Source of the DNA: Dictyostelium discoideum
Taxonomy: Eukaryota
Direction of reading: 5' to 3'
DNA length: 64,000 nucleotides
Assembly (NCBI GenBank): GCA_000004695.1
Contig: CM000153.2
Coordinates: 4,160,001 to 4,224,000, forward strand
Each line of letters starts with the position of its first letter. The stretch's first letter is position 1. The position numbers and the translations under genes are program-made. A model generated the notes under the pieces. It searched no databases and was not told the origin of the DNA. It was given only the letters and a program-made list of their open reading frames with translations. Below, one piece after another: positions 6,229 through 25,732 of the stretch.

Positions 6229-7686
6229 TTATTTTTTAAAATGTTCATTTAAAAATTGATCATAATCTATATTTTCACCATCATCATCATCATCAAGATC
6301 AATATCATCAATATTATAAGATTTATTATTATTATTTTGTTGATGATATTGATTTTTTAATTGATCTTGATCAATAATATCTTTATTTTCTAATTTCTTT
6401 TGTTTTAATAAATCAATTTTTTCTTTCTTTTCTAATGCTTCTTTTAATTGATATTTATAAGAATCTAATAGACTATTATTAATTTCTTCTTCTTCTTCTT
6501 CCTTTTCATTATCAATTTTATCTTCAAGATCAAATTTAGTTAAATTTTGAATTTCAATTTCTTGTTTTTCAAAATTTTCTTTTAATTCTTGTTTTTCTTT
6601 TTCTCTTTGTTCTTTTTTTAGTTTTTTTTCTTCAAGAATTAATTCTTGTTTTTTCTTTTCTTTTTCAATTCTTGTATTAATTTTATTTACTCTTTCTTTA
6701 AGTTTTTCTTCTTTTCTTTTAGTTTTACCATCATTTTCAAATTCTAAATGATCAATTGCAATTTTATTTGGAAATTCTATATAACGATTAGTGATTTTAA
6801 CAAATTGTTCAATTTGTAAATTTTGAGTTCTAATTTTTGGATCGATATCATCACCCAATAATGATTCAGCATCTTTACCAAGTGTTTTAATTGTATTTGA
6901 TAGTTTTTTACGTCTTTGAGAGAATAATTCTCTACATACAAATTCGAAATAATGATGATCTTTAACTGGTTCATCACCCAATGGTGAAATTCTTGGTTCA
7001 ATTGCAACCACTGATGCATCAACTTTTGGTGGTGGTACAAATGCGGTACCTGGTATTGAATATACTATAGAGGGTTGACACATTTGTTGTACCATAACTG
7101 ATAGACGTGAATATTCTTCTGAGCCTACTTGTGCACAGATTCTATCAGATAACTCCTTTTGAAACATTAAATACATTGGTACTCTACCAAATTCATATAG
7201 TCCTTGACGTGGAGCAATTTGACGAATCCATTTCAACATTAAATGTGTACCAACGTTGAATGGAAGATTACCAATGATTTTCACTTTGGATTTGTCTTTC
7301 CAATTTGTGGTTTCTGCACCTGCATCTCTTAATAGTTTAGCTTCATCAACATCCATCATGTTGGCCATAATTAATGACATTCTACCTCCACTTGATTCTT
7401 CTAACATTTTCAATGCTGGATAAAATCTTGGATCCATCTCTACTGCTATTACTTTTTTCGCTCCACTTGTTAATAAACTTCTTGTTAATCCACCTGGTCC
7501 TGCACCAACTTCTATAACTGTACAATCATCAAATCCACCTGATTTCTTACAAATTTTATCCGTTATATTTTTATCAATTAAAAAGTTTTGTGATAATTGT
7601 TGTTTTGCACTTAATCCAAAAATTCTAATAATTTCTTGAATTTTTGGCATTGGTGGTAATGATGTTGTTAAATTTTTAATTGTCAT
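6229..7686 (-). CDS. tfb1m: Mitochondrial dimethyladenosine transferase / transcription factor B1 (KsgA/Dim1 family) with a Lys/Glu-rich C-terminal tail.
   Basis: LPPMPKIQEIIRIFGLSAKQQLSQNFLIDKNITDKICKK...VIEVGAGPGGLTRSLL is colinear with human TFB1M (LPPLPTIREIIKLF...LSQNFLLDLRLTDKIV...VYEVGPGPGGITRSIL). The SAM-binding motif is present. It is a single 485-aa ORF. Confidence 0.85.
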   Translation of the reverse strand: MTIKNLTTSLPPMPKIQEIIRIFGLSAKQQLSQNFLIDKNITDKICKKSGGFDDCTVIEVGAGPGGLTRSLLTSGAKKVIAVEMDPRFYPALKMLEESSGGRMSLIMANMMDVDEAKLLRDAGAETTNWKDKSKVKIIGNLPFNVGTHLMLKWIRQIAPRQGLYEFGRVPMYLMFQKELSDRICAQVGSEEYSRLSVMVQQMCQPSIVYSIPGTAFVPPPKVDASVVAIEPRISPLGDEPVKDHHYFEFVCRELFSQRRKKLSNTIKTLGKDAESLLGDDIDPKIRTQNLQIEQFVKITNRYIEFPNKIAIDHLEFENDGKTKRKEEKLKERVNKINTRIEKEKKKQELILEEKKLKKEQREKEKQELKENFEKQEIEIQNLTKFDLEDKIDNEKEEEEEEINNSLLDSYKYQLKEALEKKEKIDLLKQKKLENKDIIDQDQLKNQYHQQNNNNKSYNIDDIDLDDDDDGENIDYDQFLNEHFKK

Positions 7687-7775
7687 TTTTTTTTTTTTTT
7701 TTTTTTTAAAAATAATAATATATTAATCTATATACAAATGTTTGTTAAAAAAAAAAAAAAAAAAAAATATATTAA

Positions 7776-9820: not shown

Positions 9821-10846
9821 ATGATATCACCACCAACAACAACAAATGAAATAGAAAGTATACCATGTATTGATTTTTCAATATTAAAAAATAATGCCAA
9901 TGATAATATAAATGGTAAAGAAATTATTTCAAAAGAAATTAAAAAAGCTTGTATAGAATATGGCTTCTTTTATATTTTAAATCACAGTATTGAACAATCT
10001 TTAATTGATAGATTAATGGAATTATCAAAAAAGTTTTTTTCATTACCATTAGATGTTAAAATGAAATATAAAATTAATATTGGTGAAAGTGAATCTAATT
10101 TAGGTTATTTTTCAATTGACCGACATTATACAGATTATAAAGAGGGTACCTTTTTAGATTTAGAGACTAATATTAATAATGCATCAAATGGAATATCAGA
10201 ATTATATCCAACAAAAGAAGAAGAAGAGCTATATGATATTGTAGGATTTAAAGATACTTGTGAAACTTTTATGAAATGTTTAAAACAATTTAGTATTGAG
10301 TTGATGGGATTGATCGCAATAAGTTTAAATTTACCAGAAGATTATTTTAATGATTTGTATTTACAAAATCCAAATTTTATTTTAGGTTTATTAAAATATA
10401 TGTCATTCGATGATGACGGTAGTGATGATAAAACCACCAAATTTGGTAATGAATCTCATTGTGATTGGAGTTTATTTACATTACTTTATCAAGATGATGT
10501 TGGTGGTTTACAAGCTTTATCAAAATCAACTGGTAATTGGATAAATGTCAAACCAATTAGTGGTTCATTCATTTTCAATATTGGAGATATGTTGGAAATC
10601 ATTACAAAAGGTTATTATACTTCAATGTTTCATCAAGTAATTTATAATACATCTGGTAGAGATCGTTATTCATTCCCATTCTTTTTTAATCCTCAACTTG
10701 ATAAACAACTAATTCCGATAAACAATTTAGAAACAACAACAACATCCAAAATTGGAAATTTTGTAAAGGATCCAAATATATTAAATTTCAAAGGAACTTA
10801 TAATGATTATCATATTATTCAAATGGAAAAATCATTTAATAAATAA
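9821..10846 (+). CDS. 2-oxoglutarate/Fe(II)-dependent dioxygenase (isopenicillin-N-synthase-like DIOX_N plus 2OG-FeII_Oxy), the intact copy.
   Basis: ATG at 9821. IPCIDFS...KEIKKACIEYGFFYILNH is the DIOX_N signature. The HCDWSLFTLLYQDD...MFHQVIY...RDRYSFPFF iron triad with RxS is present. The ORF is open and 341 aa. Confidence 0.8.
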   Translation: MISPPTTTNEIESIPCIDFSILKNNANDNINGKEIISKEIKKACIEYGFFYILNHSIEQSLIDRLMELSKKFFSLPLDVKMKYKINIGESESNLGYFSIDRHYTDYKEGTFLDLETNINNASNGISELYPTKEEEELYDIVGFKDTCETFMKCLKQFSIELMGLIAISLNLPEDYFNDLYLQNPNFILGLLKYMSFDDDGSDDKTTKFGNESHCDWSLFTLLYQDDVGGLQALSKSTGNWINVKPISGSFIFNIGDMLEIITKGYYTSMFHQVIYNTSGRDRYSFPFFFNPQLDKQLIPINNLETTTTSKIGNFVKDPNILNFKGTYNDYHIIQMEKSFNK

Positions 10847-11262
10847 AATTAATTTTTTTTTTTTTTTAAATTTCAAACAATTATAAAGGAGAAAAGATAG
10901 CTTTTTTTATAAAATTAAAATTGAGAGTGATCTATCGCATTTTTATTTTAAAAAAAGTATTTTCACTTAAAAAAACGAATTTATTTATTTAAATGAAAAT
11001 AATTTCAAATAAAATGAAATTATGAAAAAAAAAAATAAAAAAAATAAAATAAAATAAAGTTATTAAATTTTTTATAAAATAAAAGAACATTAAAAAATTA
11101 AATTATAAGAAAATAGTTAATTTTATTGATTAGATTTCAAAGGAACTTATAATGATTATTATAACATTGAAATGAACTAATTATTTAAAAAACAAAATTA
11201 AGAAAAAAAATCAAAAAAAAAAAGTTATCAAACAAACCATTAATTGCCATTTTTGGTGTTAT

Positions 11263-11297
<35 letters not shown>

Positions 11298-11544
11298 AAA
11301 AACTTAAAATTTAACATTTTCAAAAACAATTGGAAAAAAGGGGTAAAGATTCCTTTCTTTATTAAAAAAATTATTTTATCCGACCTTAAAAACATCTTGC
11401 TCAATAGTGATTATTTTTAGGATATCTAAAAACCAAGTTCATTAATATTAATTTTAAAAGAAAATAGTATAAATAAATGTAAAATTAATATGTAAATTCT
11501 AATTTATTTTATTTAATTTTTATTTTTTAATTTTTTGTGTTAAA

Positions 11545-12376
11545 TCATAGTATTGAACAATCTTTAATTGATAGATTAATGGAATTATAAAGAGGGTACT
11601 TTTTTTAGATTTAGAGACTAATTATAATAAAAAATCAAATGGAATATCAGAATTATATCCAACAAAAGAAGAAGAAGAGCTATATGATATTGTAGGATTT
11701 AAAGATACTTGTGAAACTTTTATGAAATGTTTAAAACAATTAAGTATTGAATTGATGGGATTTATTGCAATAAGTTTAAATTTACCAGAAGATTATTTTA
11801 ATGATTTATGAATCATTTTTACAAATCCAAATTTTAATTTAGGTTTATTAAAATATATGTCATTTGATGATGATGATGATGATGATGATGATAAAATTAC
11901 TAAATTCGGTATTAACCTCATTGTGATTGGAGTTTATTTACATTACTTTATCAAGATGATGTTGGTGGTTTACAAGCTTTCTCAAAATCAACTGGTAATT
12001 GGATAAATGTCAAACCAATTTGTGGTTCATTCGTTTTCAATATTGGAGATATGTTGGAAATCATTACAAAAGGTTATTATACTTCAATGTTTCATCAAGT
12101 AATTTATAATACATCTGGTAGAGATCGTTATTCATTCCCATTCTTTTTTAATTCTCAATTCGATAAACCAATAATTTAGAAACAACAACAACAACATCAA
12201 CAACAAAAATTGGAAATTATGAAAAAGATCCAAATAATTCCTATAAATAATTTAGAAACAACACCAACAACCACAACAAAAATTGGAAATTATGAAAAAG
12301 ATCCAAATATATTAAATTTCAAAGGAACTTATAAATAATGATTATCATATTATTCAAATGAAAAAATCATTTAAAT
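11545..12376 (+). pseudogene. 2OG-Fe(II) oxygenase, tandem copy C, heavily decayed.
   Basis: Homologous to copy B but with an internal deletion of about 150 nt, an in-frame stop (ttatgaatcatt), frameshifts and duplicated 3' segments. The upstream CCAAT element is mutated. Confidence 0.55.
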
Positions 12377-12639
12377 AAAATTAAGTTTTTTTTTTTTCTA
12401 AACAATCTAAAATTATCCAAGATTTTTTTTTTTTCTTCTCAGGCAATCTAGATACCATTTTCGTGTTTTTTTTTTTTTTTTTGAAACTTAAATTTCAACA
12501 CTGTCAAAAACAATTAGAAATGAGAAAAGATTGCTTTTTTTTATAATTAAAATTGATCGCTTTTTTATTTTAAAAAATGTATTTTCACTTAAAAAAAAGA
12601 ATTTATTTATTTAATAATTTCAAATAAAGTAAAATTATG

Positions 12640-13357: not shown

Positions 13358-13583
13358 ATGTCTCATCACCATCATCATCATCACCGTAGAAGTAGTAGTG
13401 TTTCATCACCATCATCACATAACAACTATTACAGTGGGCATCAACAACAAACACAACCACAACAATATAATAATTATTCACTTGACCAAAATTATGATCA
13501 AATGAAAAATGAATATAATAATTTATCAGAACTTGTACATAACATATATAATTCATTAAATTCATATTGTAATTCAATAAAAG
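13358..13583 (+). CDS. Paralogue P1 of a Gln/Pro-rich protein family, exon 1 (His-rich N-terminus; ends ...NSIKG at a GTAAAC donor, phase 1).
   Basis: ORF 13358..13597. Donor at 13584. The same exon-end motif (K-G followed by a phase-1 intron) occurs in P2 and P3. Confidence 0.6.
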
Positions 13584-13676
13584 GTAAACATATCTAATAT
13601 CTATTATATATATATATTTATAAATATTAAATAATAAACTAATTTAATTTATTTATTATTATTATTATATAAATAG

Positions 13677-14823
13677 ATATTTATTTAAATTCAAATAGTT
13701 TTATGAATAATGTTTCAAAATTATTTGGTAATGAACATCCATTATCAAAATATGGTAATGGTGTTTTAATGATGGCAGATGAAAGTTTTAAAGATTGGAT
13801 GGATAATCAATCACCAAACTTTCAAATGTTGGGTGACTATTGTTATGATTTAAATATTGTAAAATCTAAAATCGATAAAGTCGATCAACTATCATTAGAG
13901 TTATCCCATCAAAATTTAGATGAATACATTCAATTAAAGGATGAAGTTTTTAGAGATGTTTCAAATCAATTTCAAGCAAGAGTAACAAGATTCGATATAC
14001 CTTTAATCAATACTCAATTCTCTCTCCCAAGTTTATATCAATGTTTAAATTCAATACATGAAACAAATGGTACTGAACAATTACAACAATCAATTGAAAT
14101 TGCTAATCCTGTAATCTCTTTATCACCTGATAATACAATTGCAATTAATACTGTAAATGATAATAATAATAATGATAATAATAGTAATAATAGTACACCT
14201 GAAATTATGACACGTGTTGGTATACCACCACAATCACAAGCACAACAACCACAAGCACAACAACAACCACCACAACAACAACAAAGAGTTAATACAGCAT
14301 CAACATTTTCAAGTCCAACAATGTTTTTATCTAAACCTGTAAAAACAGAGGTTACATATGCTGCACCACCAAAAACTTTACAAAAATTACCTGGTTCAAG
14401 AGAGTATACTAGACAATCTGTACCAACACCACAACAACAATCACCTTTAAAACCTATAGCTAGACCAAATTCTTTACCAAATAATAATAATATCAACACT
14501 ACAGCAACACAACCACCATTAAGACCAACACCAGTACCAACACCAGCACCAGTTGTTGAGCAACCAACACCAAGTGCACCACCACCTCAAAATCAACCAC
14601 CAATTATAATGGGTAGACAAGTTTTACCTCATAATCCAAATAGTAGTAATAATAATAATTCAATGGATAGTGGTAGTGGAGTTATTTCACAACCACTAAG
14701 ACCAGTACCCCATAAAAGTATTCAAAAAGGCTTCGTAGCTAGTAATGTTAATAAACCTCCTTTATCACCTTCTACTTCAACTCCAAATTTACAACAATAT
14801 CAACCACCACAACAATCACAATC

Positions 14824-14869
<46 letters not shown>

Positions 14870-15148
14870 CCTTTATCACTATCAAATTCAACTCCAAATT
14901 TATATCAAACACAACAACAACAACAACAACAACAATCACCTCTACCTCCAAAACCAAGACCATCTGTACAATTATCATCATCAACATCTACTTCACAACC
15001 ATTAAGACCTCAACCACCAATTTCTCAACAACAAGAGCAACCACCATCTAGACCAAGATCATTATCACTATCTCAACAACAAACACCAACCCAATCATTT
15101 GCAAGACCTTTACCAACAGCATTAAACAATAACAATAATAATAATTAA
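13677..15148 (+). CDS. P1 exon 2: a conserved N-terminal domain (DIYLNSNSF..., FDIPLINTQFSLPSLYQCLNS) followed by a long Pro/Gln/Ser/Thr-rich low-complexity tail.
   Basis: Acceptor aaatag at 13675-13676. The reading frame is continuous into ORF 13703..15148. Colinear with P3 exon 2. Confidence 0.6.
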
Positions 15149-15430
15149 GGGAAAAAACACTTAATATTAATATAATATAAAATATACCCCCAAGTACGTT
15201 AAAATTTAAAATTATAATAAAATTAATTTTTTTTTTCATTATTTTTTTTTTATTTTTTTTTAATTTTATTTTATTTCTTTGTTGTGGTGTGTTTAAACCA
15301 AAAAAAGAATTTTCATTAAGAGTAATTAAAATTAAAAAGTCTAAAATTTAAAAGGTTTTTCTTTTTTTTTTTCTTTGAGACTATTTACTTTTTAACAATA
15401 AATTTTTTTTTTTTATTTTTAGTCCAAACA

Positions 15431-15575
15431 ATGTCACCTATAGAAAATATAAATAATAATAATTTCATTTCAAAAGATTTTAATTTTCAAATTATAAAAA
15501 ATGAATTTAGTTTTCATTATGATAAAATTATTTTAATTTATAAATTAATTAATAATCAAGAAATTTCAAATAAAG
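15431..15575 (+). CDS. Paralogue P2, exon 1 (ends ...ISNK-G, phase 1).
   Basis: ATG at 15431. Donor GTATAA at 15576. Same architecture as P1 and P3. Confidence 0.5.
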
Positions 15576-15681
15576 GTATAACTTTTATTTAAAAAAAAAA
15601 AAAAAAGTTTTTTATAACCCATTTTTCATAATTAATTAATTAAATTTTTTTTTTTTTTTTTTTTTTGCCCATAAAATAAAG

Positions 15682-16466
15682 AATATATTAAAAATATTAT
15701 AAATTATTATGAAAAGGATAATTCTTGTACAAATTCATTAATTTATAATTATATTTCAATAATATCAAATGATATTGAAAGTTGTTTTGCTAATTGGAGA
15801 AATAGTTTAAAGAATGAATTTCAAATTATTAATAAATATTGTTTAGAATTAAATGTATTAAATGAAAAATTTGAAAATTTTTGTCAATTAGAGATTAAAT
15901 TATTAAATTCTATTTCAAGACAACAACAACAACAACCACCTATTGGATTTACTAAAAATGAATATTTTATTTTAAAATCTGAAATATTTAAAATGGTAAG
16001 AATATTATTAGAAAAAAGAAATTTAAATTTTGATGAACCATTAAAAAATATTCAAATTTCATTACCAATTTTATATGAAAATTTAAAATTAATTCATTTA
16101 AATTCACATAAATTAATTAATAAAGAAAAACAACAGTTAAATGAAAATGAAAATGAAAATATATCATTACATAATCAATATATAAATTCATTATCACCTG
16201 ATAATTCATTTTTAAAAATTAAACAATTGGATGGTGCTTCGTCTTTGTCTTCTGCCATTTTTAAACCATTACCACCATTACCGCAACCAAAACAATTACC
16301 ATCAATACCAATTTCACAAATAACTTCACCACAAAAAGAACCACAACAACAATTAAAAAAATTAAGACCTGCACCAATTCCAAAAGAACTTGAAAATAAC
16401 TATGTAATTTCTGTAACTCCAACTTCATCACAGGTTACAAACAATTTTTCTAACCAAAATGTCTAA
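15682..16466 (+). CDS. P2 exon 2 (conserved domain NIQISLPILYENLKL plus a Pro/Gln-rich tail).
   Basis: Acceptor aataaag at 15680-15681. In frame with ORF 15993..16466 and open all the way upstream. Confidence 0.5.
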
Positions 16467-16725
16467 AAATTAAAAATATAAATTAAAAAAAAAAAAAGTA
16501 GATCCCGATTCGTTATAGATATTTTCACATAAAAAAAAAAATTTATTTTTAATTTTTTAAATTTTTTTTTTAATTTATTTTTTTTTTTATTTTTTTTTTT
16601 ATTTTTTTGTGTTTGTTAAATTATAAGAAACAAATAAAAATAAAAAAAATAATTCACATTGCGCCTGAAAAAAAAAAAAAAAAAAAAACATTTAATTTTT
16701 TATATATATAAAAAAAATTAAAGAA

Positions 16726-16875
16726 ATGATAAAAAATACAGCTCCCAACAAATTTGTAGGCAATAATAAAATAGTTGACCCAAATTATGAAACATTAAAA
16801 AATGAATTTTTCAAATTATCTCAAAATATATTAACAATTTATAATTCATTAAATAATAATAATAAAACTATGAAA

Positions 16876-16876
<1 letters not shown>
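16726..16876 (+). CDS. Paralogue P3, exon 1 (ends ...KTMKG, phase 1, GTAAAA donor).
   Basis: ORF 16726..16968. NEFFKLSQNILTIYNSLN parallels P1 NEYNNLSELVHNIYNSLN. Confidence 0.6.
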
Positions 16877-16923
<47 letters not shown>

Positions 16924-16991
16924 ATTTATTATTTCACATTGAATTTATTTATTAAAAATATGTTTTAATTATTATTATTATTAATATTTAG

Positions 16992-18160
16992 ATATTTACT
17001 TAAATTCAAATAGTTTTTTAAATAATTTATCAAATTATTATCATAATAGTAATAATAATAATAATAATAATAATGGGTATGGGACGACTACTGAACAACA
17101 TCCATTAGGTGATTATAGTAATCAAATTTTAATAAATGTTAATAAAACATTCGAAGAATGGGAATTTAATCAATCTAGTCATTTTCAATCATTGAATGAT
17201 TATTGTAATCAAATTGAACAAATCAAATCAAAGATTGAAAGATTAGATAAACAAATGAACACAGAATCACAAGAATATCAAACTTTAAAAAATCAAATAT
17301 TTAAAGATGTTCAACAACTTTTCGATTCCAGAGTTAATCAATTTGATATACCATTAATTAATATACAATTCTCATTCAATAGTTGTTTACAATCTTTAAA
17401 TTCAAATCATAATGATTCTTCATTCTTACTTCAACAACCAATTAATTTTAATAATCCCGTACAATCATTACAACCATTAAATAATAATAGTGGTGTTACA
17501 CCATTAAGACATGCACCACCTGTAAATAATCATCTACAACAAATACCAAGACCAACCACTTCATATACACCACCAAAACAATATGTACCATCACCTCAAC
17601 AAAAACATCATCAATATACACCACCTCAACCATATACACCACCTCAACAACAACAACAACAACACCAATATACACCACCTCAACCATATAATCCACAACC
17701 ACAACAATATCAAGAACAAATGTATGAAAAATCACAAGAACAACCACCAGAACAACCACCAAATTCAGGACCAAGAAAAGGAAAATCACAATTGAAACAA
17801 ATTGAAAGACCCACTCAAATAGAGCTACCTGATAAATCAGTGATTGAACCAAATCTAAAGAGAAAGCCAGGTGACTTTTTAAGAGATCCTAATGCTCCAC
17901 GTTTTGTTCCTGCTTCATCTCAACAGCAGCAACAACAACAACAACAACAACAACAACATAGTAATAAACCTTCAATGGAACATCATTCAATGTCATTAAG
18001 TGAATCTTATAAACAAAAGGTTGTACTTTCAAATGATATAAATGAGCATGGATCACAAGGAAGTGATAATCATTCCAACACCACTTCTAAACCACCTGTG
18101 AGAAAATTAGATAATACAATAAGAACACCACCATCAAGACCTACTCCTTTACCAAAATAA
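16992..18160 (+). CDS. P3 exon 2 (DIYLNSNSFLNN..., FDIPLINIQFSFNSCLQSLNS, then a Pro/Gln/Tyr-rich tail).
   Basis: Acceptor ttag at 16990-16991. The frame is continuous with ORF 17192..18160. Exon 2 begins with the same ATATTTAyTTAAATTCAAATAG sequence as P1. Confidence 0.6.
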
Positions 18161-18299: not shown

Positions 18300-18617
18300 T
18301 TTGCATTTATTATTTAAAAATTAAAAAAAAAAAAAATATATAATAAAATTTAAAAATATTAATTTTCGACCTCGTTATTGATTAATGGGCACTCTCGAAA
18401 ATTTAACCAATAAAATAATATCTCCCTTTTCATTGGACGCTTCTAAATTTTTTTTTTTTTTTTCATGGCTATTTGGTGTCATTTGCAGAATATTTTTTTT
18501 TTTTTTTTTTTTTTTATAATAAAATTTTTTTTTTTTTTTTTTTTTTTTTATTCGTGATCTATTTTTTTTATATTAAGAATAATATTTTATTTCTTTTTTT
18601 TTTTTTTTTTAATATAT

Positions 18618-18705
18618 ATGTTTTTCATTAAAAATAGAGTAGTTATTTTGATTTTCTTTTTATTTATTTGTTTCAAATTGAATCAAAGCCTAATTCAATC
18701 AGAAT
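18618..18705 (+). CDS. Tandem receptor-like gene, unit 1, exon 1 (signal peptide).
   Basis: MFFIKNRVVILIFFLFICFKLNQSLIQSEC, then a GT donor in phase 1. Homologous to exon 1 of units 2-5. Confidence 0.5.
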
Positions 18706-18817
18706 GTAGATATTTTAAAAATATTTTTATTTTTTTAAATTTTTTTTTTTTTGGGATTTGTTTTTAACCACTTTTTTTTTTTTTTCATTTTTTCATTTTT
18801 TTCACGGTCAAACAAAG

Positions 18818-19040
18818 ATGAATGTTCATTTAATTTATTAAGTAAAATATTAAATGTTTCGCTTGAATACAGTAGGGATTCAAAAAATAGATATGATTTT
18901 TGTGGTTCAAGTAAAAAAGGTTTTGTATCGATGGTATGTGATGGGGAAAATGATTTCATTTCATCTATATCATTAGGTAGTAATAGAAGTACAATATTAT
19001 CATCTTCCGATTTTAATTGTTTTTCTTCGATTAGTATTAT
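18818..19040 (+). CDS. Unit 1 exon 2 (Cys-containing N-terminal module, 223 nt).
   Basis: ORF 18751..19110 frame. Colinear with unit 2 exon 2. Confidence 0.5.
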
Positions 19041-19111
19041 GTTTGTATTTAAATTTTTTAATTGTCATTATTATTATCATTCTTATTATTATTTTTTTAC
19101 AAATTATTAAT

Positions 19112-19147
<36 letters not shown>

Positions 19148-19148
<1 letters not shown>

Positions 19149-19495
19149 CAATTATATCTTAATTATAAATTTGAAAAAAATTTTTTATATGGATTTTCAA
19201 AAATAATTCCACACTTTTTATCATATTCTACAGATGAATCATTATTTGATTTGGATTTTAATATTGATAAAATGATATTAATAGATAGATTAGTTATTAA
19301 AAAATTAAAAATAAAAAAAAATTATAATCTTTATTTTTCAAGTTTAAAAAATGTCAGTATTTTCGAACTTGAATATGGACCATCAAATTTTCAAATTAAT
19401 TATATAAATGATTTATTTGAATTTAAAAATTTCATATCAATAAATATTTTTTCAAGTAGTATACCTTCAATGAATAATATAAATATTCTAGAATT
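19148..19495 (+). CDS. Unit 1 exon 3 (LRR-like).
   Basis: ORF 19062..19499 frame. GTAAGT donor at 19496. Phase-2 boundaries. Confidence 0.5.
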
Positions 19496-19580
19496 GTAAG
19501 TAAAAATAATTTTATTTTTTTTTTATTTTTCAAATTAATAATAATAATAATAGTAATAAAAATTATTAATTAATGATAAA

Positions 19581-19656
<76 letters not shown>

Positions 19657-19660
19657 GTAG

Positions 19661-19822
19661 AGTTTTAAATTTATTACCAAGTTTTAATTTAAAATCATTT
19701 TCCAACTTTTCAACATTTTCAAATGTTGAGTCTATAAATTTAAATCCTACAAATCCATCAATGATTTTCCCATTCCCAATAGGATTGTGTAATCTTAATT
19801 TTAATAATAGTTTGGGAAGTTT
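19661..19822 (+). CDS. Unit 1 exon 4 (LRR-like, ...NPSMIFPFP...).
   Basis: Acceptor ccgtag, GTAAGT donor, phase 2 on both sides. Confidence 0.45.
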
Positions 19823-19913
19823 GTAAGTTTTCTTTCTTTTTTTTTTTTTTTTTTTTTAATTTTTTTATTCTAATAATTTTGATAAAATCCACATTCTAAT
19901 ATAAATTATAAAG

Positions 19914-19985
19914 AGAAATAAACTACCAAATAGATAAACCATTAGATTTTATAGACCTTTCAGCATTGGGAAATTTATTTTTATT
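19914..19985 (+). CDS. Unit 1 exon 5 (72-nt LRR unit).
   Basis: Conserved 72-nt exon in all five units. Confidence 0.45.
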
Positions 19986-20074
19986 GTAAGTTTTTTTACT
20001 AATATTCATTATCATTACATTTTCTTTAATTTATTAATTAATTTATTATTATTTTTTTTTTTTAAAAAATAAAG

Positions 20075-20158
20075 TTTAATGCCAAATGTGGGACCTTTAT
20101 TTAATGTGGATGGTGAATTTCCTTTTATTAATATGATTAATAGATTTTATATAAGATT
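20075..20158 (+). CDS. Unit 1 exon 6.
   Basis: ...PNVGPLFNVDGEFPFINM..., GTAAGT donor. Confidence 0.45.
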
Positions 20159-20253
20159 GTAAGTGTTTTTTTATATTGGTGAAAAACATTTACATTTAGA
20201 TTTTAATTATTTTAAATTTAATTAATTTTTTTTTTTTTTTTTTTTTAAATTAG

Positions 20254-21976
20254 TGAATTTTCAAATGGAAGAATTAATAGTTTTAATTTTATAAATGCAA
20301 CAACATTGACAATGGAAAATAATGGTATGGCAGGTACGATACCAACAGCTTTTCCTGGTGATAGGAACATTAATCTAAAGGGTAATAAGTTGGTAGGAGA
20401 AATTGATGAAAGTTGGTGTGGTAATTTATTTGATATTAGTGATAACTATATAAGTGGTGAGCTTCCATCATGTTTTAAATGTCATTATTTACAACCATTA
20501 ATTAGTTCAACACTATCTGGTAATAGATTTAAAAATTTCGATCCAAATAATTTAGAACCATGTTTAGATTTAGAATTAAATTTAGAATATAATCATTCTT
20601 TCAACAGATCATTAACATTATATGGTAAAAATCTTGGTCCATTTGATAATTCATTAAGAATTTATGATATAGATAATATTGGACCTATTACTATTATAGC
20701 ATGCAAAGAATATAAGATTAGAAAGTTTACTTGGGTACCGGGAGATGCACCAAAAGCAATTAATTTAACTTTTCCTTTTTTACCACAAGGCCCAAGAACA
20801 TTTGAAATCTCTGCATATAATGAATTTTTACCACATATCGATAGTATAATTAGATATTCAGATTATTTTATTATTAGTGGTAAATACTTTGCATATAATA
20901 AGAGTGTTATTAATGTTTTAATTTCAAATCATTCATGTTCAATTATAACAAGTAATTTCAATGAAATTCAATGTTATCTTTCAAATTCAAATCAAATAAT
21001 AAATAGTAATAGCAATAAATTAATTGCAAGTATTATTCAAGTTATGAATGTTTCAAGTACATTTAATTTCACAGCGAATCAAGCATGTAATGGTAATAAT
21101 TGTCCAATCGCAGATTGTAATAAATATGGTGAATATAATTATGAAAGTGGTGTTTGTGATTGTTATTCAAATGAATGGAGAGGCTATTCATGTGAATTAA
21201 AATCATTAAATTGTTTAAGTAATGATTGTAGCGGTAATGGCTATTGTAATAGTATCATTGGTAAATGTCAATGTAATAAAAATAGAGCATTCGATGATTG
21301 TAGTGGTATATTATGCAATGATGGTAATGGTTGTTTTAATGGAGGTAATTGTAATTTTCAAATTGGGGTTTGCAATTGTTCATCCAAATGGATTGAAAGT
21401 TCAGGATGTGCAACACCCAAACAATCAATTGATTCACAACAATTAGTACAAACAAAAAACAATCAAATATTAACATTAATTGGTTGGTTTGGTAATATTA
21501 ATATATTTTTAACAGTATTAATCGATGGTAAAATTTGTGACATCACTTCAAATAATAATGAAACCATTCAATGTATTCCACCAAATTATCATTGTGATTT
21601 CATAAAGACCTCATCATTAGAATTATCAGTTTCTCAAAATAATTACATATGGAATGGAGTTTATAATCCAATATTTATTAATGGCTGTAGTAATAGCAAT
21701 GAAGGCAGTAGTGGTATCAATAACAGTTATAGTAATAGCAATGAAAAAGAAAATTCATCATTATCATACAAAAATCAATCTTTAGTTTTAATCCTATCAA
21801 TTGTGTTATCTTTAATTTTATTAGGTTTATTAGGTTTAGTTTTCTTTAAAAAATTAGTCATAAAAAATAATTATTTAAATATAAATAATATTGAAAATAA
21901 AATAAGACCGAGTGAATATGATAATGATCAACCAGATGAATTTTTAAAAAATAAAATTAAATTAATTGACCTTTAG
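20254..21976 (+). CDS. Unit 1 exon 7: plant-type LRRs (LTMENNGMAGTIP...LKGNKLVGEID...FDISDNYISGELP), tenascin/EGF-like Cys repeats, a Ser/Asn stalk, a TM helix and a short cytoplasmic tail.
   Basis: ORF 20306..21976, open upstream to the acceptor aaattag at 20252-20253. Confidence 0.7.
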
Positions 21977-22504
21977 AGGCAATACCCCAAATTAAAAAAA
22001 AAAAAAAAAAAAACAGGTTCCCTTAGAGATACTCCAATTAGTTGGGTGGGTTGTTTTATTTCTCAAATTTAATTGTTTTTTTTTTTTTTTTTTTTAGTTG
22101 CTTCATTTTTACAAATAAATAATAAAAAATTTTATTCAAAAAAAAAAAAAAATTAATTAGTCAACCCTTAAAAAATATATGAATTCAAGGTGAATCTAAC
22201 ATATTTTAATATTTATATGGTCGCAAAATAAAAAAAAGGCAGAGGGATTTCACTGAAAGTTTTGGTGCATTTTTTAAAAAAAATAAAAAATAAAAAAAAA
22301 AAAAATTTAAAAAAAAATCTTAAAAGCGATAAAACTTTTCTTAGGATGAAAATTTTTTTATTTTTTTATTTTTTTTTTTTTTTTATTTTTTTTTTTTTCG
22401 AATTTAAAAATATCTCAAATGATTTAACAAGTGCGGGCAAAACAAAATTGATTTTTTTTTTTTTTTGTTTTTTTTTTTTTTTTTTTTTTAAAAAATCAAA
22501 AGGG

Positions 22505-22589
22505 ATGAAAATGAAAAGTAGAGGGTTCATATTATTTTTTATAATCATACTTTCAAATTTAAGCCAAGCAACTCTAGTTGAATCAGAAT
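22505..22589 (+). CDS. Unit 2 exon 1 (signal peptide MKMKSRGFILFFIIILSNLSQATLVESEC).
   Basis: ATG at 22505 (alternative start at 22511). GTAAAA donor in phase 1. Confidence 0.55.
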
Positions 22590-22664
22590 GTAAAAATAAT
22601 AGAATTTTAATAACACAAATAAATAAATAAATATTAATTCTTTTATTTTTATTTCTTATATTAG

Positions 22665-22887
22665 ATAAATGTTTATATAATTTATTAAGTAAAATTTTAA
22701 AAGTATCAAAAAACTTTTATAAAGAATCTAATAATAGATATGCATTTTGTCAGACTGCTGATAAATCAGATTTTCTTTGGGCACAATGTTCTGAAGGTTC
22801 AGTTGAAAATATTTTTTTAGGTTCCAATAATAAAAGTACAATTTTTTCAAACAATGATTTTAATTGTTTTTCTTCTTTGCAAAATAT
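22665..22887 (+). CDS. Unit 2 exon 2 (...KCLYNLLSKILKVSKNFYKESNNRYAFCQT...NDFNCFSSLQNM).
   Basis: Acceptor atattag at 22662-22664. GTAAGT donor at 22888. Confidence 0.55.
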
Positions 22888-22967
22888 GTAAGTCCTAACA
22901 ATAACAATAATAATAAATATCATTTTATTAATACTTTTTTTTTTTAAAAATAAAAAATAAAAAAAAG

Positions 22968-23318
22968 AGAAATATTTTTTAAATACAAATTTGAAAGAAA
23001 TTTTTTATTTGGGTTTTCAAGTAATTTATTTAATTTTAAATCACATTCTTCAGATGAATCATTAATTGATATGGATGTCAATGCTAACAAAACAATTTCA
23101 ATTAAATATTTATATATTAATCAATTAATAATTAAAAGAGATTTTAATATTTATTTTTCAAATTTTGTTAATGTCCGAAATTTTGAAATTGACACACTCC
23201 AATCAAACTACCAAATTAATTATATAAATGATTTGGTTAGTTTTAAATGTAATTTTGATACAATTTCATTTTCTTCAAATAATATACCATCAATGAATAA
23301 TATACTAGTAAATAATTT
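22968..23318 (+). CDS. Unit 2 exon 3 (LRR-like, includes ORF 23071..23322).
   Basis: The frame is open from the acceptor. GTAAGT donor at 23319. Confidence 0.55.
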
Positions 23319-23405
23319 GTAAGTTTTTATTATTCTATTCTTTTTTTTTTTTTTTTTTTTAATATGAAATAATACTAAATTAATTAATCTATATTTATAT
23401 AATAG

Positions 23406-23546
23406 ATATATAAAACTACTTTCAAATTTTAATATTGATTCATTTTTCAACTTTTCAACAAATACAAACATTGGTACTATAAAATTAAATTCATCAGATC
23501 CATCAATGCTTTTTCCATTTCCACCCCCTTCTTCTGTTCAATCATT
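23406..23546 (+). CDS. Unit 2 exon 4.
   Basis: YIKLLSNFNIDSFFNFSTNTNIGTIKLNSSDPSMLFPFPPPSSVQSL. Followed by an intronic (TTA)n tract. Confidence 0.5.
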
Positions 23547-23560
23547 GTAATTATTAATTA

Positions 23561-23648
<88 letters not shown>

Positions 23649-23672
23649 AACTATTATATTATTATAAATAAG

Positions 23673-23744
23673 AGTAATAAATTATCTAATAGAGAAGCCA
23701 TTGAATTTTATTGATTTATCTAAATTTGAAAAATTAATTTATTT
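23673..23744 (+). CDS. Unit 2 exon 5.
   Basis: LVINYLIEKPLNFIDLSKFEKLIYL, 72 nt, GTAAGT donor. Confidence 0.5.
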
Positions 23745-23825
23745 GTAAGTATTTTTTTATATTTTAAAATGTTTCTTTTCTAAACTTTTCACTAACTTTT
23801 TTTTATAATTTATAATTATTAAAAG

Positions 23826-23903
23826 AAAAATTCCAAATGTTGGAGTTTTATTTAATGTAGATGGTGAATTACCATTCATTAATATGCAAAATATTTATAA
23901 TTT
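23826..23903 (+). CDS. Unit 2 exon 6.
   Basis: LKIPNVGVLFNVDGELPFINMQNIYNL, GTAAGT donor. Confidence 0.5.
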
Positions 23904-23985
23904 GTAAGTATTTTTTTTTTTTTTTTTTTTTTTTTTCAGAATTTAATGATGATGATATTTAACTATTTTACATATTTTTAATTAG

Positions 23986-25732
23986 CGAGTTTTCAAATGG
24001 GAAAATCAATTATTTAAATTGGACAAAATTACCAACCGAAGTGGGATATTTAACAATGGAAAATAATGGTATGACAGGTACGATACCAACAAAGTATCCA
24101 GATTATTTATCCTACCTTTATGTAAAGGGGAATAAGTTGACAGGAGAAATTGATGAAAGTTGGTATGGTAAATTATTTGATATTAGTGATAACTATATTA
24201 GTGGTGAGCTTCCATCATGTTTTAAATGTCATTATTTACAACCATCAATTAGCTCAACACTATCTGGTAATAGATTTAAAAATTTCGATCCAAATAATTT
24301 AGAACCATGTTTAGATCTAGAATTAAATTTAGAATATAATCATTCTTTCAACAGATCATTAACATTATATGGTAAAAATCTTGGTCTATTTTTTAATTCA
24401 TTTAGTATTAGCAGTGTTAATAATGCTTTACAACCTTTGCCTATTGATATATGCAAAGAATATAAGATTAGAATGCGACCTACAGAACCAGGTGATGCAC
24501 CAAAAGCAATTAATTTAACTTTTCCTTTTTTACCACAGGGTTCAAAAACATTTCAAATCTCTGCATATAATGAATTTTTACCACAAATCGATAGTATAGT
24601 TAGATATTCAGATTATTTTATTATCAGTGGTAAATACTTTGCATACAATCAGAGTGTAACTACTGTTTTAATTTCAAATCATTCATGTTCAATTATAACA
24701 AGTAATTTCAATGAAATTCAATGTTATCTTTCAAATTCAAATCAAATCATTAATAATGAAGAATTAATTACAAGTATTATTCAAGTTATGAATGTTTCAA
24801 GTAAATTTAATTTCAGAGTGAATCAAGCATGTAATGGTAATAATTGTCCAATTGCAGATTGTAATAAATATGGTGAATATAATTATGAAAGTGGTGTTTG
24901 TGATTGTTATTCAAATGAATGGAGAGGCTATTCATGTCAATTAAAATCATTAAATTGTTTAAGTAATGATTGTAGCGGTAATGGTTATTGTAATAATATC
25001 ATTGGTAAATGTGAATGTAATACAAATAGAGTATTCGATGATTGTAGTGGTATATTATGTAATAATGGTCATGGTTGTTTTAATGGAGGTAATTGTAATT
25101 TTCAAAATGGAGTTTGCAATTGTTCATCCAAATGGATTGAAAGTTCAGGATGTGCAACACCCAAACAATCAATTGATTCACAACAATTAGTACAAACAAA
25201 AAACGATCAAATATTAACATTAATTGGTTGGTTTGGTAATATTAATATATTTTTAACAGTATTAATCGATGGTAAAATTTGTGATATCATTTCAAATAAT
25301 AATGAAACCATTCAATGTATTCCACCAAATTATCATTGTGATTCCATAAAGACCTCATCATTAGAATTATCAGTTTCTCAAAATAATTACATATGGAATG
25401 GAACTTATAATCCAATATTTATTAATGGCTGTAGTAATAGTAATGAAGGCAGTAGTGGTATCAATAACAGTTATAGTAGTAATAGTAATGAAAACAATCA
25501 AAAAGAAAATTCATCATTATCACCCAAAAATCAAATTCTAGTAATAATCATATCAATTATATTATCTTTAATTTTATTAGGTTTATTAGGTTTAATTTCC
25601 TTTAAAAAATTAATCAAAAAAAATAATTATTTGCATTTAAATAATATTGAAAATAAAATAAGGCCGAATAAAGATGATAGTGGTCAACCAGATGAATTTT
25701 CAAAGAATAAAATTAAACTAATTAACCTTTAG
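23986..25732 (+). CDS. Unit 2 exon 7: LRR, EGF-like repeats, TM and tail. The spliced protein is about 898 aa.
   Basis: ORF 24041..25732 extended to the acceptor aattag at 23983-23985. All seven exon phases are consistent. Confidence 0.7.

Follow-up and report, generated by a model that had tools for sequence, protein, structure and literature searches.

In a 64,000-nucleotide stretch of the Dictyostelium discoideum genome (contig CM000153.2 of assembly GCA_000004695.1, forward-strand positions 4,160,001 to 4,224,000; hereafter the window, to whose coordinates positions refer unless another assembly is named), three neighboring genes on one strand, P1 (13358-15148), P2 (15431-16466), and P3 (16726-18160), very probably encode proteins with a divergent BAR domain. 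BAR domains are the membrane-curvature and scaffold modules of amphiphysin and BIN1. We place P1-P3 as old paralogs in a dictyostelid-restricted BAR subfamily that lies nearest, by both sequence and fold, to the BAR domains of amphiphysin, BIN, and Rvs proteins, and put the probability of the BAR assignment at about 0.9.

Identity of the N-terminal domain

The first-pass annotation of this DNA had described a shared N-terminal domain of about 130 amino acids (aa), could not assign it to a known family, and had named a match to a well-known domain as a finding that would speak against its reading. The conserved domain is longer than that, spanning ~170-190 residues, and profile and fold searches led to exactly such a match, a BAR domain of the amphiphysin/BIN type. 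Specifically, a profile built from 17 family sequences and searched against PDB sequences retrieved amphiphysin (9bqx, E = 7.9e-7) and BIN1 (2fic, 4.6e-6), as well as BIN2 (4i1q/4avm, 1.2e-4 and 3.1e-4), with the alignment extending over profile positions 4-200. The family comprises a short-type clade, to which P1-P3 belong, and a long-type group, both described below. When the clade with P1-P3 was used alone, amphiphysin was still ranked first (1.5e-4; BIN1, 2.3e-3), hence the signal is not merely transitive. The deep-branching long-type clade alone matched BIN2 (6.4e-6) and BIN1 (6e-5), and hhalign aligned the two clades to each other with a probability of 99.85% (E = 1e-30). Below the Pfam threshold, more members matched BAR (PF03114) than any other family (5/17, best E = 1.1e-4). 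The predicted monomer has the shape expected of a BAR fold, with three long antiparallel helices packed into an elongated bundle of ~200 aa. Moreover, the P1 ortholog of D. purpureum already bears the automatic UniRef name 'BAR domain-containing protein'.

The similarity emerges only from family-level comparisons. Pfam scans of the single P1-P3 sequences returned no significant family, which is the reason for the 'hypothetical' labels on these genes. A profile of the three sequences retrieved nothing significant among PDB sequences, and the BAR signal appeared only once the dictyostelid homologs were added. A word-indexed protein search, with either the P1 N-domain or the 17-sequence alignment, also found nothing, although the family is present in that collection.

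Two observations count against the assignment. No single sequence reaches the PF03114 gathering score of 28.5 bits (the P1 N-domain obtains 13.6 bits, E = 0.052), and the Foldseek E-values are weak (>= 0.02), long helical bundles being prone to draw many non-homologous structural matches. We attribute the first to the sensitivity limit of single-sequence searches; it is not evidence against homology. The idea that the three-helix domain is an unrelated dictyostelid invention that came to look BAR-like by convergence, as any long antiparallel helical bundle might, we regard as barely credible.

Gene models and splicing

The window has ~18-34% GC per 2-kb step, with CAA repeats and intergenic poly(A)/poly(T) tracts. 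Within it, each of P1-P3 yields a clean open reading frame (ORF) only after removal of a single intron, giving spliced products of 565 aa (P1), 309 aa (P2), and 439 aa (P3). Three adjacent two-exon genes with these outer limits had been proposed from the letters alone, and a 2025 D. discoideum assembly (GCA_054883475.1) bears this out, with genes of 565, 309, and 439 aa called at the P1-P3 positions. Its DNA equals the window across the 4.8 kb of P1-P3, the sole difference being 10 A's in the P3 intron. This poly(A) length polymorphism lies at 16879-16888, the window having 10 A's more than GCA_054883475.1. The gene parts are as follows, and a caret marks exon junctions here and in the text.

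13358..13583, + strand: P1 exon 1, aa 1-75 plus base 1 of codon 76; first part of BAR helix 1; clean spliced ORF, with a gene of the same extent and length in GCA_054883475.1
13584..13676, + strand: P1 intron, 93 nt, GTAAAC...AATAG, 6.5% GC, phase 1; same site and phase in D. firmibasis and D. purpureum
13677..15148, + strand: P1 exon 2, starting (G^)AT ATT TAT = DIYLNSNSF; remaining BAR domain and Pro/Gln-rich tail, to the stop
13484..14062, + strand: P1 BAR coding region, aa 43-204, with the intron inside it
15431..15575, + strand: P2 (DDB_G0286327) exon 1, aa 1-48 plus base 1 of codon 49; KNEF part of BAR helix 1, missing from the AX4 model
15576..15681, + strand: P2 intron, 106 nt, GTATAA...ATAAAG, 11% GC, phase 1
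15682..16466, + strand: P2 exon 2, starting (G^)AA TAT ATT = EYIKNIINYY; short tail
15476-16100, + strand: P2 BAR domain, aa 16-188
16726..16876, + strand: P3 exon 1, aa 1-50 plus base 1 of codon 51
16877..16991, + strand: P3 intron, 115 nt, GTAAAA...ATTTAG, 5% GC, phase 1; contains a poly(A) run
16992..18160, + strand: P3 exon 2, starting DIYLNSNSF; Pro/Gln-rich tail with YTPPQPY repeats
16777-17413, + strand: P3 BAR domain, aa 18-191

All three introns are of the GT..AG type, with 5-11% GC, and interrupt the reading frame in phase 1 after a Lys codon (AAA G^GTA(A/T)A); unspliced read-through of any of them runs into stop codons. The common phase-1 intron and its GTA(A/T)A donor, both part of the earlier description, were thus recovered in every gene, and the intron site and phase were also retained in the D. 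firmibasis orthologs of P1 and P3 and the D. purpureum ortholog of P1. These orthologs share the AAAG^GTA donor as well as the AG^ATAT(T/A)TATTTAAATTCAAATAGT start of exon 2. The details at the junction required partial revision. Exon 1 had been read as ending in Lys-Gly; the Lys is correct, and the G after it opens a split codon specifying Asp (G^AT) in P1 and P3 or Glu (G^AA) in P2. Likewise, the proposed exon-2 start, DIYLNSNSF, holds for P1 and P3 (G^AT ATT TA(T/C) TTA AAT TCA AAT AGT) and not for P2, in which exon 2 begins G^AA TAT ATT AAA AAT (EYIKNIINYY). The AATAG further downstream in P1 and P3, inside the codons for DIYLNSNSF, was rightly taken as coding and not as an intron 3′ end, because use of an acceptor there results in an immediate stop. 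The near-identity of P1 and P3 DNA at this point was also considered as a splicing element or as a product of gene conversion. Both ideas were rejected, since codon sharing is equally high domain-wide: 75% of the identical P1/P3 N-domain residues share their codon, owing to codon bias, and 8/9 shared codons at the exon-2 start are therefore as expected from conservation of the protein sequence together with that bias.

The domain assignment bears on the gene models as well. In the P1 structural model, DIYL closes helix 1a, NSNS forms a four-residue break, and F opens helix 1b. Because the P1 intron falls inside helix 1, splicing is needed for a complete BAR domain, which provides independent support for the gene models. 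P1 also carries a natural His7 tract (13364-13384, MSHHHHHHHRR), represented by His6 in the D. firmibasis ortholog and absent from that of D. purpureum.

The P2 product is identical to KAM9942141.1 from the GCA_054883475.1 annotation and clusters with DDB_G0286327 / XP_637780.1 / Q54M51, annotated as 'hypothetical protein'. The AX4 reference model (XP_637780.1, 252 aa, MNL^DNSC...) begins at an ATG at 15501, with a 9-nt exon 1 and a 207-nt intron (region 15501-15716), and this intron removes conserved coding sequence of BAR helix 1. The 309-aa two-exon model regains the conserved D-x-N-F...KNEF segment. Judged from the sequence, the two-exon model is the better of the two, and the AX4 reference annotation of DDB_G0286327 is amended accordingly. 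P2 exon 2 was also intact, at 99.6% identity, in six short-read assemblies of unchecked organism and strain (SRR26869256, SRR26869257, SRR26869266, SRR26869267, SRR28564540, and SRR28564541). In these six, the QQQQQ run of P2 is one Gln shorter, in frame, and the 3′ part of the P2 intron reads ATTAAATAAAATAAAG in place of GCCCATAAAATAAAG, with the acceptor and the reading frame kept.

Family history, derived features, and tails

Paralogy of the three genes, as first proposed, was borne out by BLASTP between the N-domains (P1-P3, E = 6e-47 at 44% identity; P1-P2, 7e-16; P2-P3, 7e-12), and these three are the only family copies within the window. The motif by which they had been linked (IYNSLN, FDIPLINxQFS, LYQCLNS) describes P1 and P3 well and fits P2 in part. 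When 1.84 billion cluster representatives were searched exhaustively with HMMER, a profile built from the P1-P3 N-domains recovered 16 proteins, all from Dictyostelia and distributed over the genera Dictyostelium, Cavenderia, Polysphondylium, Acytostelium, Synstelium, and Heterostelium; no fungal or metazoan protein was recovered at E <= 0.001. The Heterostelium relative is labeled as a secreted hydroxyproline-rich glycoprotein. We rejected this identity for the family, since inspection revealed no hydrophobic signal-like N-terminal segment and the domain is of a cytosolic BAR type. The searches thereby delimit a small dictyostelid-restricted BAR family with several D. discoideum members, among them fusions of a BAR domain to a transglutaminase-like domain; literature searches returned no description of it.

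In the N-domain tree, P1 grouped with its D. purpureum ortholog and P3 with its D. firmibasis ortholog, each with 100% bootstrap support. An exclusive P1-P2-P3 clade received 0% support, and paralogs bearing transglutaminase domains interleaved with the P1 and P3 lineages. We therefore rejected a recent tandem triplication: the P1 and P3 lineages each possess a D. purpureum ortholog of their own, and the transglutaminase-bearing paralogs fall among them, so that the array is old. The P1 and P3 orthologs are also adjacent in D. firmibasis (GCA_036169595.1: 5595-7403 and 8001-9469). The D. purpureum P1 ortholog has no P3-like neighbor inside its 14-kb contig.

The slot between P1 and P3 in D. 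firmibasis (7570-7746) holds a relic of P2, of which ~190 nt are recognizable, with 46% aa identity to P2 residues 69-138 and 88% DNA identity over 73 nt. In the relic, an internal deletion has removed the family-invariant Trp, and the frame contains a stop. P2 is therefore older than the split between D. discoideum and D. firmibasis and was lost in the latter. This raises the prospect that D. discoideum P2 is itself a decaying, dispensable paralog on its way to becoming a pseudogene, leaving P1 and P3 as the only functional genes. Beyond the relic, such decay is in keeping with the lack of a P2 ortholog among the HMMER cluster representatives and with the divergence of P2, which at 27-32% identity is the most divergent copy, has lost the nearly invariant His-Pro and Ser positions, and sits on a long branch without a resolved place in the tree. 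However, D. discoideum P2 reads as an unbroken ORF of 309 codons, its splice sites are good, it retains both the Trp and the FDxPL core, and exon 2 in the six short-read assemblies differs only by the in-frame Gln. On balance, we consider decay of P2 somewhat unlikely, if worth keeping in mind.

The tree separates the short type, found only in the genus Dictyostelium (100% bootstrap, including P1-P3), from the long type, found in Cavenderia, Polysphondylium, Acytostelium, Synstelium, and one D. discoideum paralog. Long-type domains are basic (pI 8.0-8.8), have a helix-2/3 hairpin that is ~25-30 residues longer and carries 9-11 Lys/Arg, and begin with a conserved MKxFGxKLK..GGP segment that the profile aligns to the N-terminus of BIN2. 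In the short type, the Lys-rich helix-2/3 tip is deleted and the MKxFGxKLK..GGP segment is absent. The N-domains of P1, P3, and P2 have net charges of -13 (pI 4.5), -5 (pI 5.3), and -2 (pI 6.1), respectively, a whole-domain measure that gives only an indirect indication of how the concave face is charged. One long-type member, Acytostelium subglobosum GAM27281.1 (P0016), lacks MKxFGxKLK and instead starts with MGGGPSK, fitting the Gly2/Ser6 pattern of N-myristoylation, and this N-terminus may be an alternative membrane anchor that replaces the amphipathic helix.

These derived features set P1-P3 apart from amphiphysin, BIN1, and BIN2 (metazoan N-BAR proteins; 9bqx, 2fic, 4i1q, 4avm): P1-P3 carry neither a conserved N-terminal amphipathic segment nor a C-terminal SH3 domain, and their BAR domain is acidic and has its Lys-rich helix-2/3 tip deleted. 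The segments preceding the BAR domain in P1-P3 are of low complexity (His7/Ser/Gln or Asn-rich) and include no conserved basic-hydrophobic segment of the kind expected for an N-terminal amphipathic helix (H0), and Pfam scans of the full-length proteins detected no SH3 or other tail domain, even at E up to 10. Without the amphipathic helix, the SH3 domain, and the Lys-rich tip, P1-P3 should therefore not be named amphiphysin orthologs. Since their tail is itself proline-rich, it would be a ligand of proline-motif readers and not a reader.

A second point of comparison is offered by the yeast Rvs161/Rvs167 heterodimer and by BIN3/Hob3 (BAR-only partner proteins), where several amphiphysin-type BAR paralogs likewise occur per genome. 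In Rvs167, the BAR domain is followed by a disordered region rich in Gly, Pro, and Ala. Rvs161/Rvs167 are the source of the idea that a derived BAR paralog can be an obligate heterodimer partner; the likeness of P1-P3 to them is by analogy. Closer at hand, the long-type paralogs (D. discoideum KAM9975859.1 = P0013; Cavenderia DFA_11929 = P0012) share with P1-P3 the BAR domain, the Pro/Gln-rich tail, and the HPL, W, and FDxPL positions, but their tails have PPRP-type motifs and do not use the LRPxP motif of the short type.

A third architecture was found in eight relatives (P0006, P0007, P0009, P0010, P0011, P0015, P0017, and P0018), in which the N-domain and a proline-rich linker are followed by one or two C-terminal transglutaminase-core domains (PF01841, E = 1e-13 to 2e-30). 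These paralogs have a short-type BAR domain and an LRPxP-bearing linker as in P1-P3, whereas P1-P3 end after the tail; a Pfam scan detected no PF01841 in them. We found no description of the BAR plus transglutaminase-like architecture in literature searches. In yeast, Cyk3, which acts in cytokinesis, combines an SH3 domain with an inactive transglutaminase-like domain (PMC3386208), a likeness to the dictyostelid fusions that is by analogy from the literature only. The Synstelium relative additionally has DBC1 and LAIKA domains, maybe through a fusion of gene models.

The tails of P1-P3 contain 15-18% Pro, 12-19% Gln, and 9-18% charged residues and are net basic (P1 +14, P2 +5, P3 +9). Their composition and motifs recall the proline-rich segments that serve as ligands in cytoskeletal and endocytic adaptors. 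Within the short-type clade there are 12 occurrences of LRPxP, compared with ~0 expected from shuffling, and two islands, SGVISQPLRPVPHKSIQ in P1 and KRKPGDFLRDPNAPRFVP in P3, are kept across three species amid fast-evolving low-complexity sequence. The tail features are as follows.

14519..14533, + strand: P1 motif LRPTP, the first LRPxP copy
14675..14725, + strand: P1 island SGVISQPLRPVPHKSIQ, holding the second LRPxP copy; nearly invariant in D. firmibasis and D. purpureum
15002..15016, + strand: P1 motif LRPQP, the third copy
16362-16376, + strand: P2 motif LRPAP
17858..17911, + strand: P3 island KRKPGDFLRDPNAPRFVP, conserved in D. firmibasis and D. purpureum; candidate short linear motif

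The first-pass annotation had likened these tails to prion-like or hydrogel-forming sequence, a comparison that their proline content, net basic charge, and conserved motifs and islands do not uphold. In its full form, this alternative holds that P1-P3 are prion-like low-complexity proteins whose N-domain is a generic coiled coil. The tails do have poly-Gln runs of 15 (P1) and 12 (P3), plus poly-Asn runs, and a dimer bearing multivalent proline-rich tails might in principle join condensates. However, Q/N prion domains do not typically contain 15-18% Pro or 9-18% charged residues, the tail islands are conserved between species, and the homology of the N-domain is specifically to BAR domains, at odds with a generic coiled coil, making this alternative very improbable. 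Poly-Gln and poly-Asn runs are ordinary, genome-wide, in D. discoideum, which is rich in CAA and AAT repeats. Charge is segregated along all three proteins, with an acidic BAR domain (-13, -2, and -5 for P1, P2, and P3) and a basic tail (+14, +5, and +9), an arrangement that could allow intramolecular autoinhibition or tail-mediated membrane contact.

Proposed scaffold model and genomic surroundings

We favor, with moderate confidence, a reading of P1-P3 as dimeric BAR scaffolds that present proline-rich ligands. The details are more tentative. By homology with other BAR domains, the module would form homo- or heterodimers, and each dimer would display two disordered, basic Pro/Gln-rich tails. 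These might recruit members of the actin, endocytic, or cortical machinery that recognize proline motifs through SH3-type or other domains. From the lost basic tip, the lost N-terminal segment, and the acidity of the module, we infer that autonomous binding and bending of acidic membranes would be weak, and the P1-P3 modules would then be mainly dimerization and scaffold units. They could be heterodimer partners of the basic long-type paralog, as Rvs161 is with Rvs167, or the basic tail could contact the membrane.

The principal alternative for their action is that P1-P3 are fully functional and bend membranes autonomously in the manner of amphiphysin or Rvs167, sensing and tubulating curved membrane on their own, with the basic tail or a basic patch on the concave face offsetting the lost tip and N-terminal helix. 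It draws on the fact that the top sequence and structure matches are N-BAR domains, on the strongly basic tails, and on the compatibility of a local basic patch with the whole-domain net charge. The acidic N-domains (pI 4.5-6.1), the deletion of the Lys-rich tip seen in long-type relatives, and the absence of the conserved N-terminal basic-hydrophobic segment all point the other way, and we regard autonomous bending as unlikely.

Several points also detract from the scaffold reading. The acidity of the modules is judged from whole-domain charge, with the limit given above. The tails show no enrichment of the textbook SH3 consensus motifs of class I or class II, and LRPxP fits neither. The P2 pseudogene relic indicates that at least P2 is dispensable in D. 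firmibasis. Where transcript evidence was sought, the short-read contigs with the P2 C-terminal ORF proved to be collinear genomic DNA with the intron retained, and not cDNA. Literature searches by gene identifier and topic found no experimental account of these genes.

A bolder extension of the scaffold reading would have the dictyostelid amphiphysin-type lineage invert the usual logic, placing a proline ligand, or a Cyk3-like transglutaminase-like domain, where others carry an SH3 reader. P1-P3 would then be 'pseudo-BAR' subunits unable to bind membrane, heterodimerizing with the basic long-type paralog to tune curvature sensing or valency in macropinocytosis, cytokinesis, or development. 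We offer this as a speculation that is distinctly unlikely to hold in full.

With the scaffold reading, three D. discoideum 'hypothetical proteins' become testable candidate BAR scaffolds with defined proline motifs. The amoeba serves as a workhorse in research on macropinocytosis, phagocytosis, cytokinesis, and motility, in all of which BAR proteins play a central part; uncharacterized, partly degenerate BAR paralogs are therefore worth knocking out. The result is incremental and introduces no new principle, one ortholog having already received an automatic BAR label. P1-P3 are uncharacterized members of a well-known protein class, with derived features worth testing.

No tRNA genes were found in the window. 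DDB_G0286321, an identifier whose number is close to that of P2, was picked as a developmental-stage promoter reporter, as the third of six genes, with 'mound' the third stage named (PMC8538044). By coordinate transfer, the upstream flank of the array (~9889-12401) holds two 2OG-Fe(II) oxygenase genes, one of 392 aa and a fragment-like one of 117 aa, and the downstream flank (~18612-25732) a tandem pair of ComC-like genes of ~900 aa each (LRR_ComC, TIG, EGF_TEN). The flanks differ in D. firmibasis, where Pelota, GFA, and cystatin genes lie upstream and a 974-aa gene and dynactin lie downstream.

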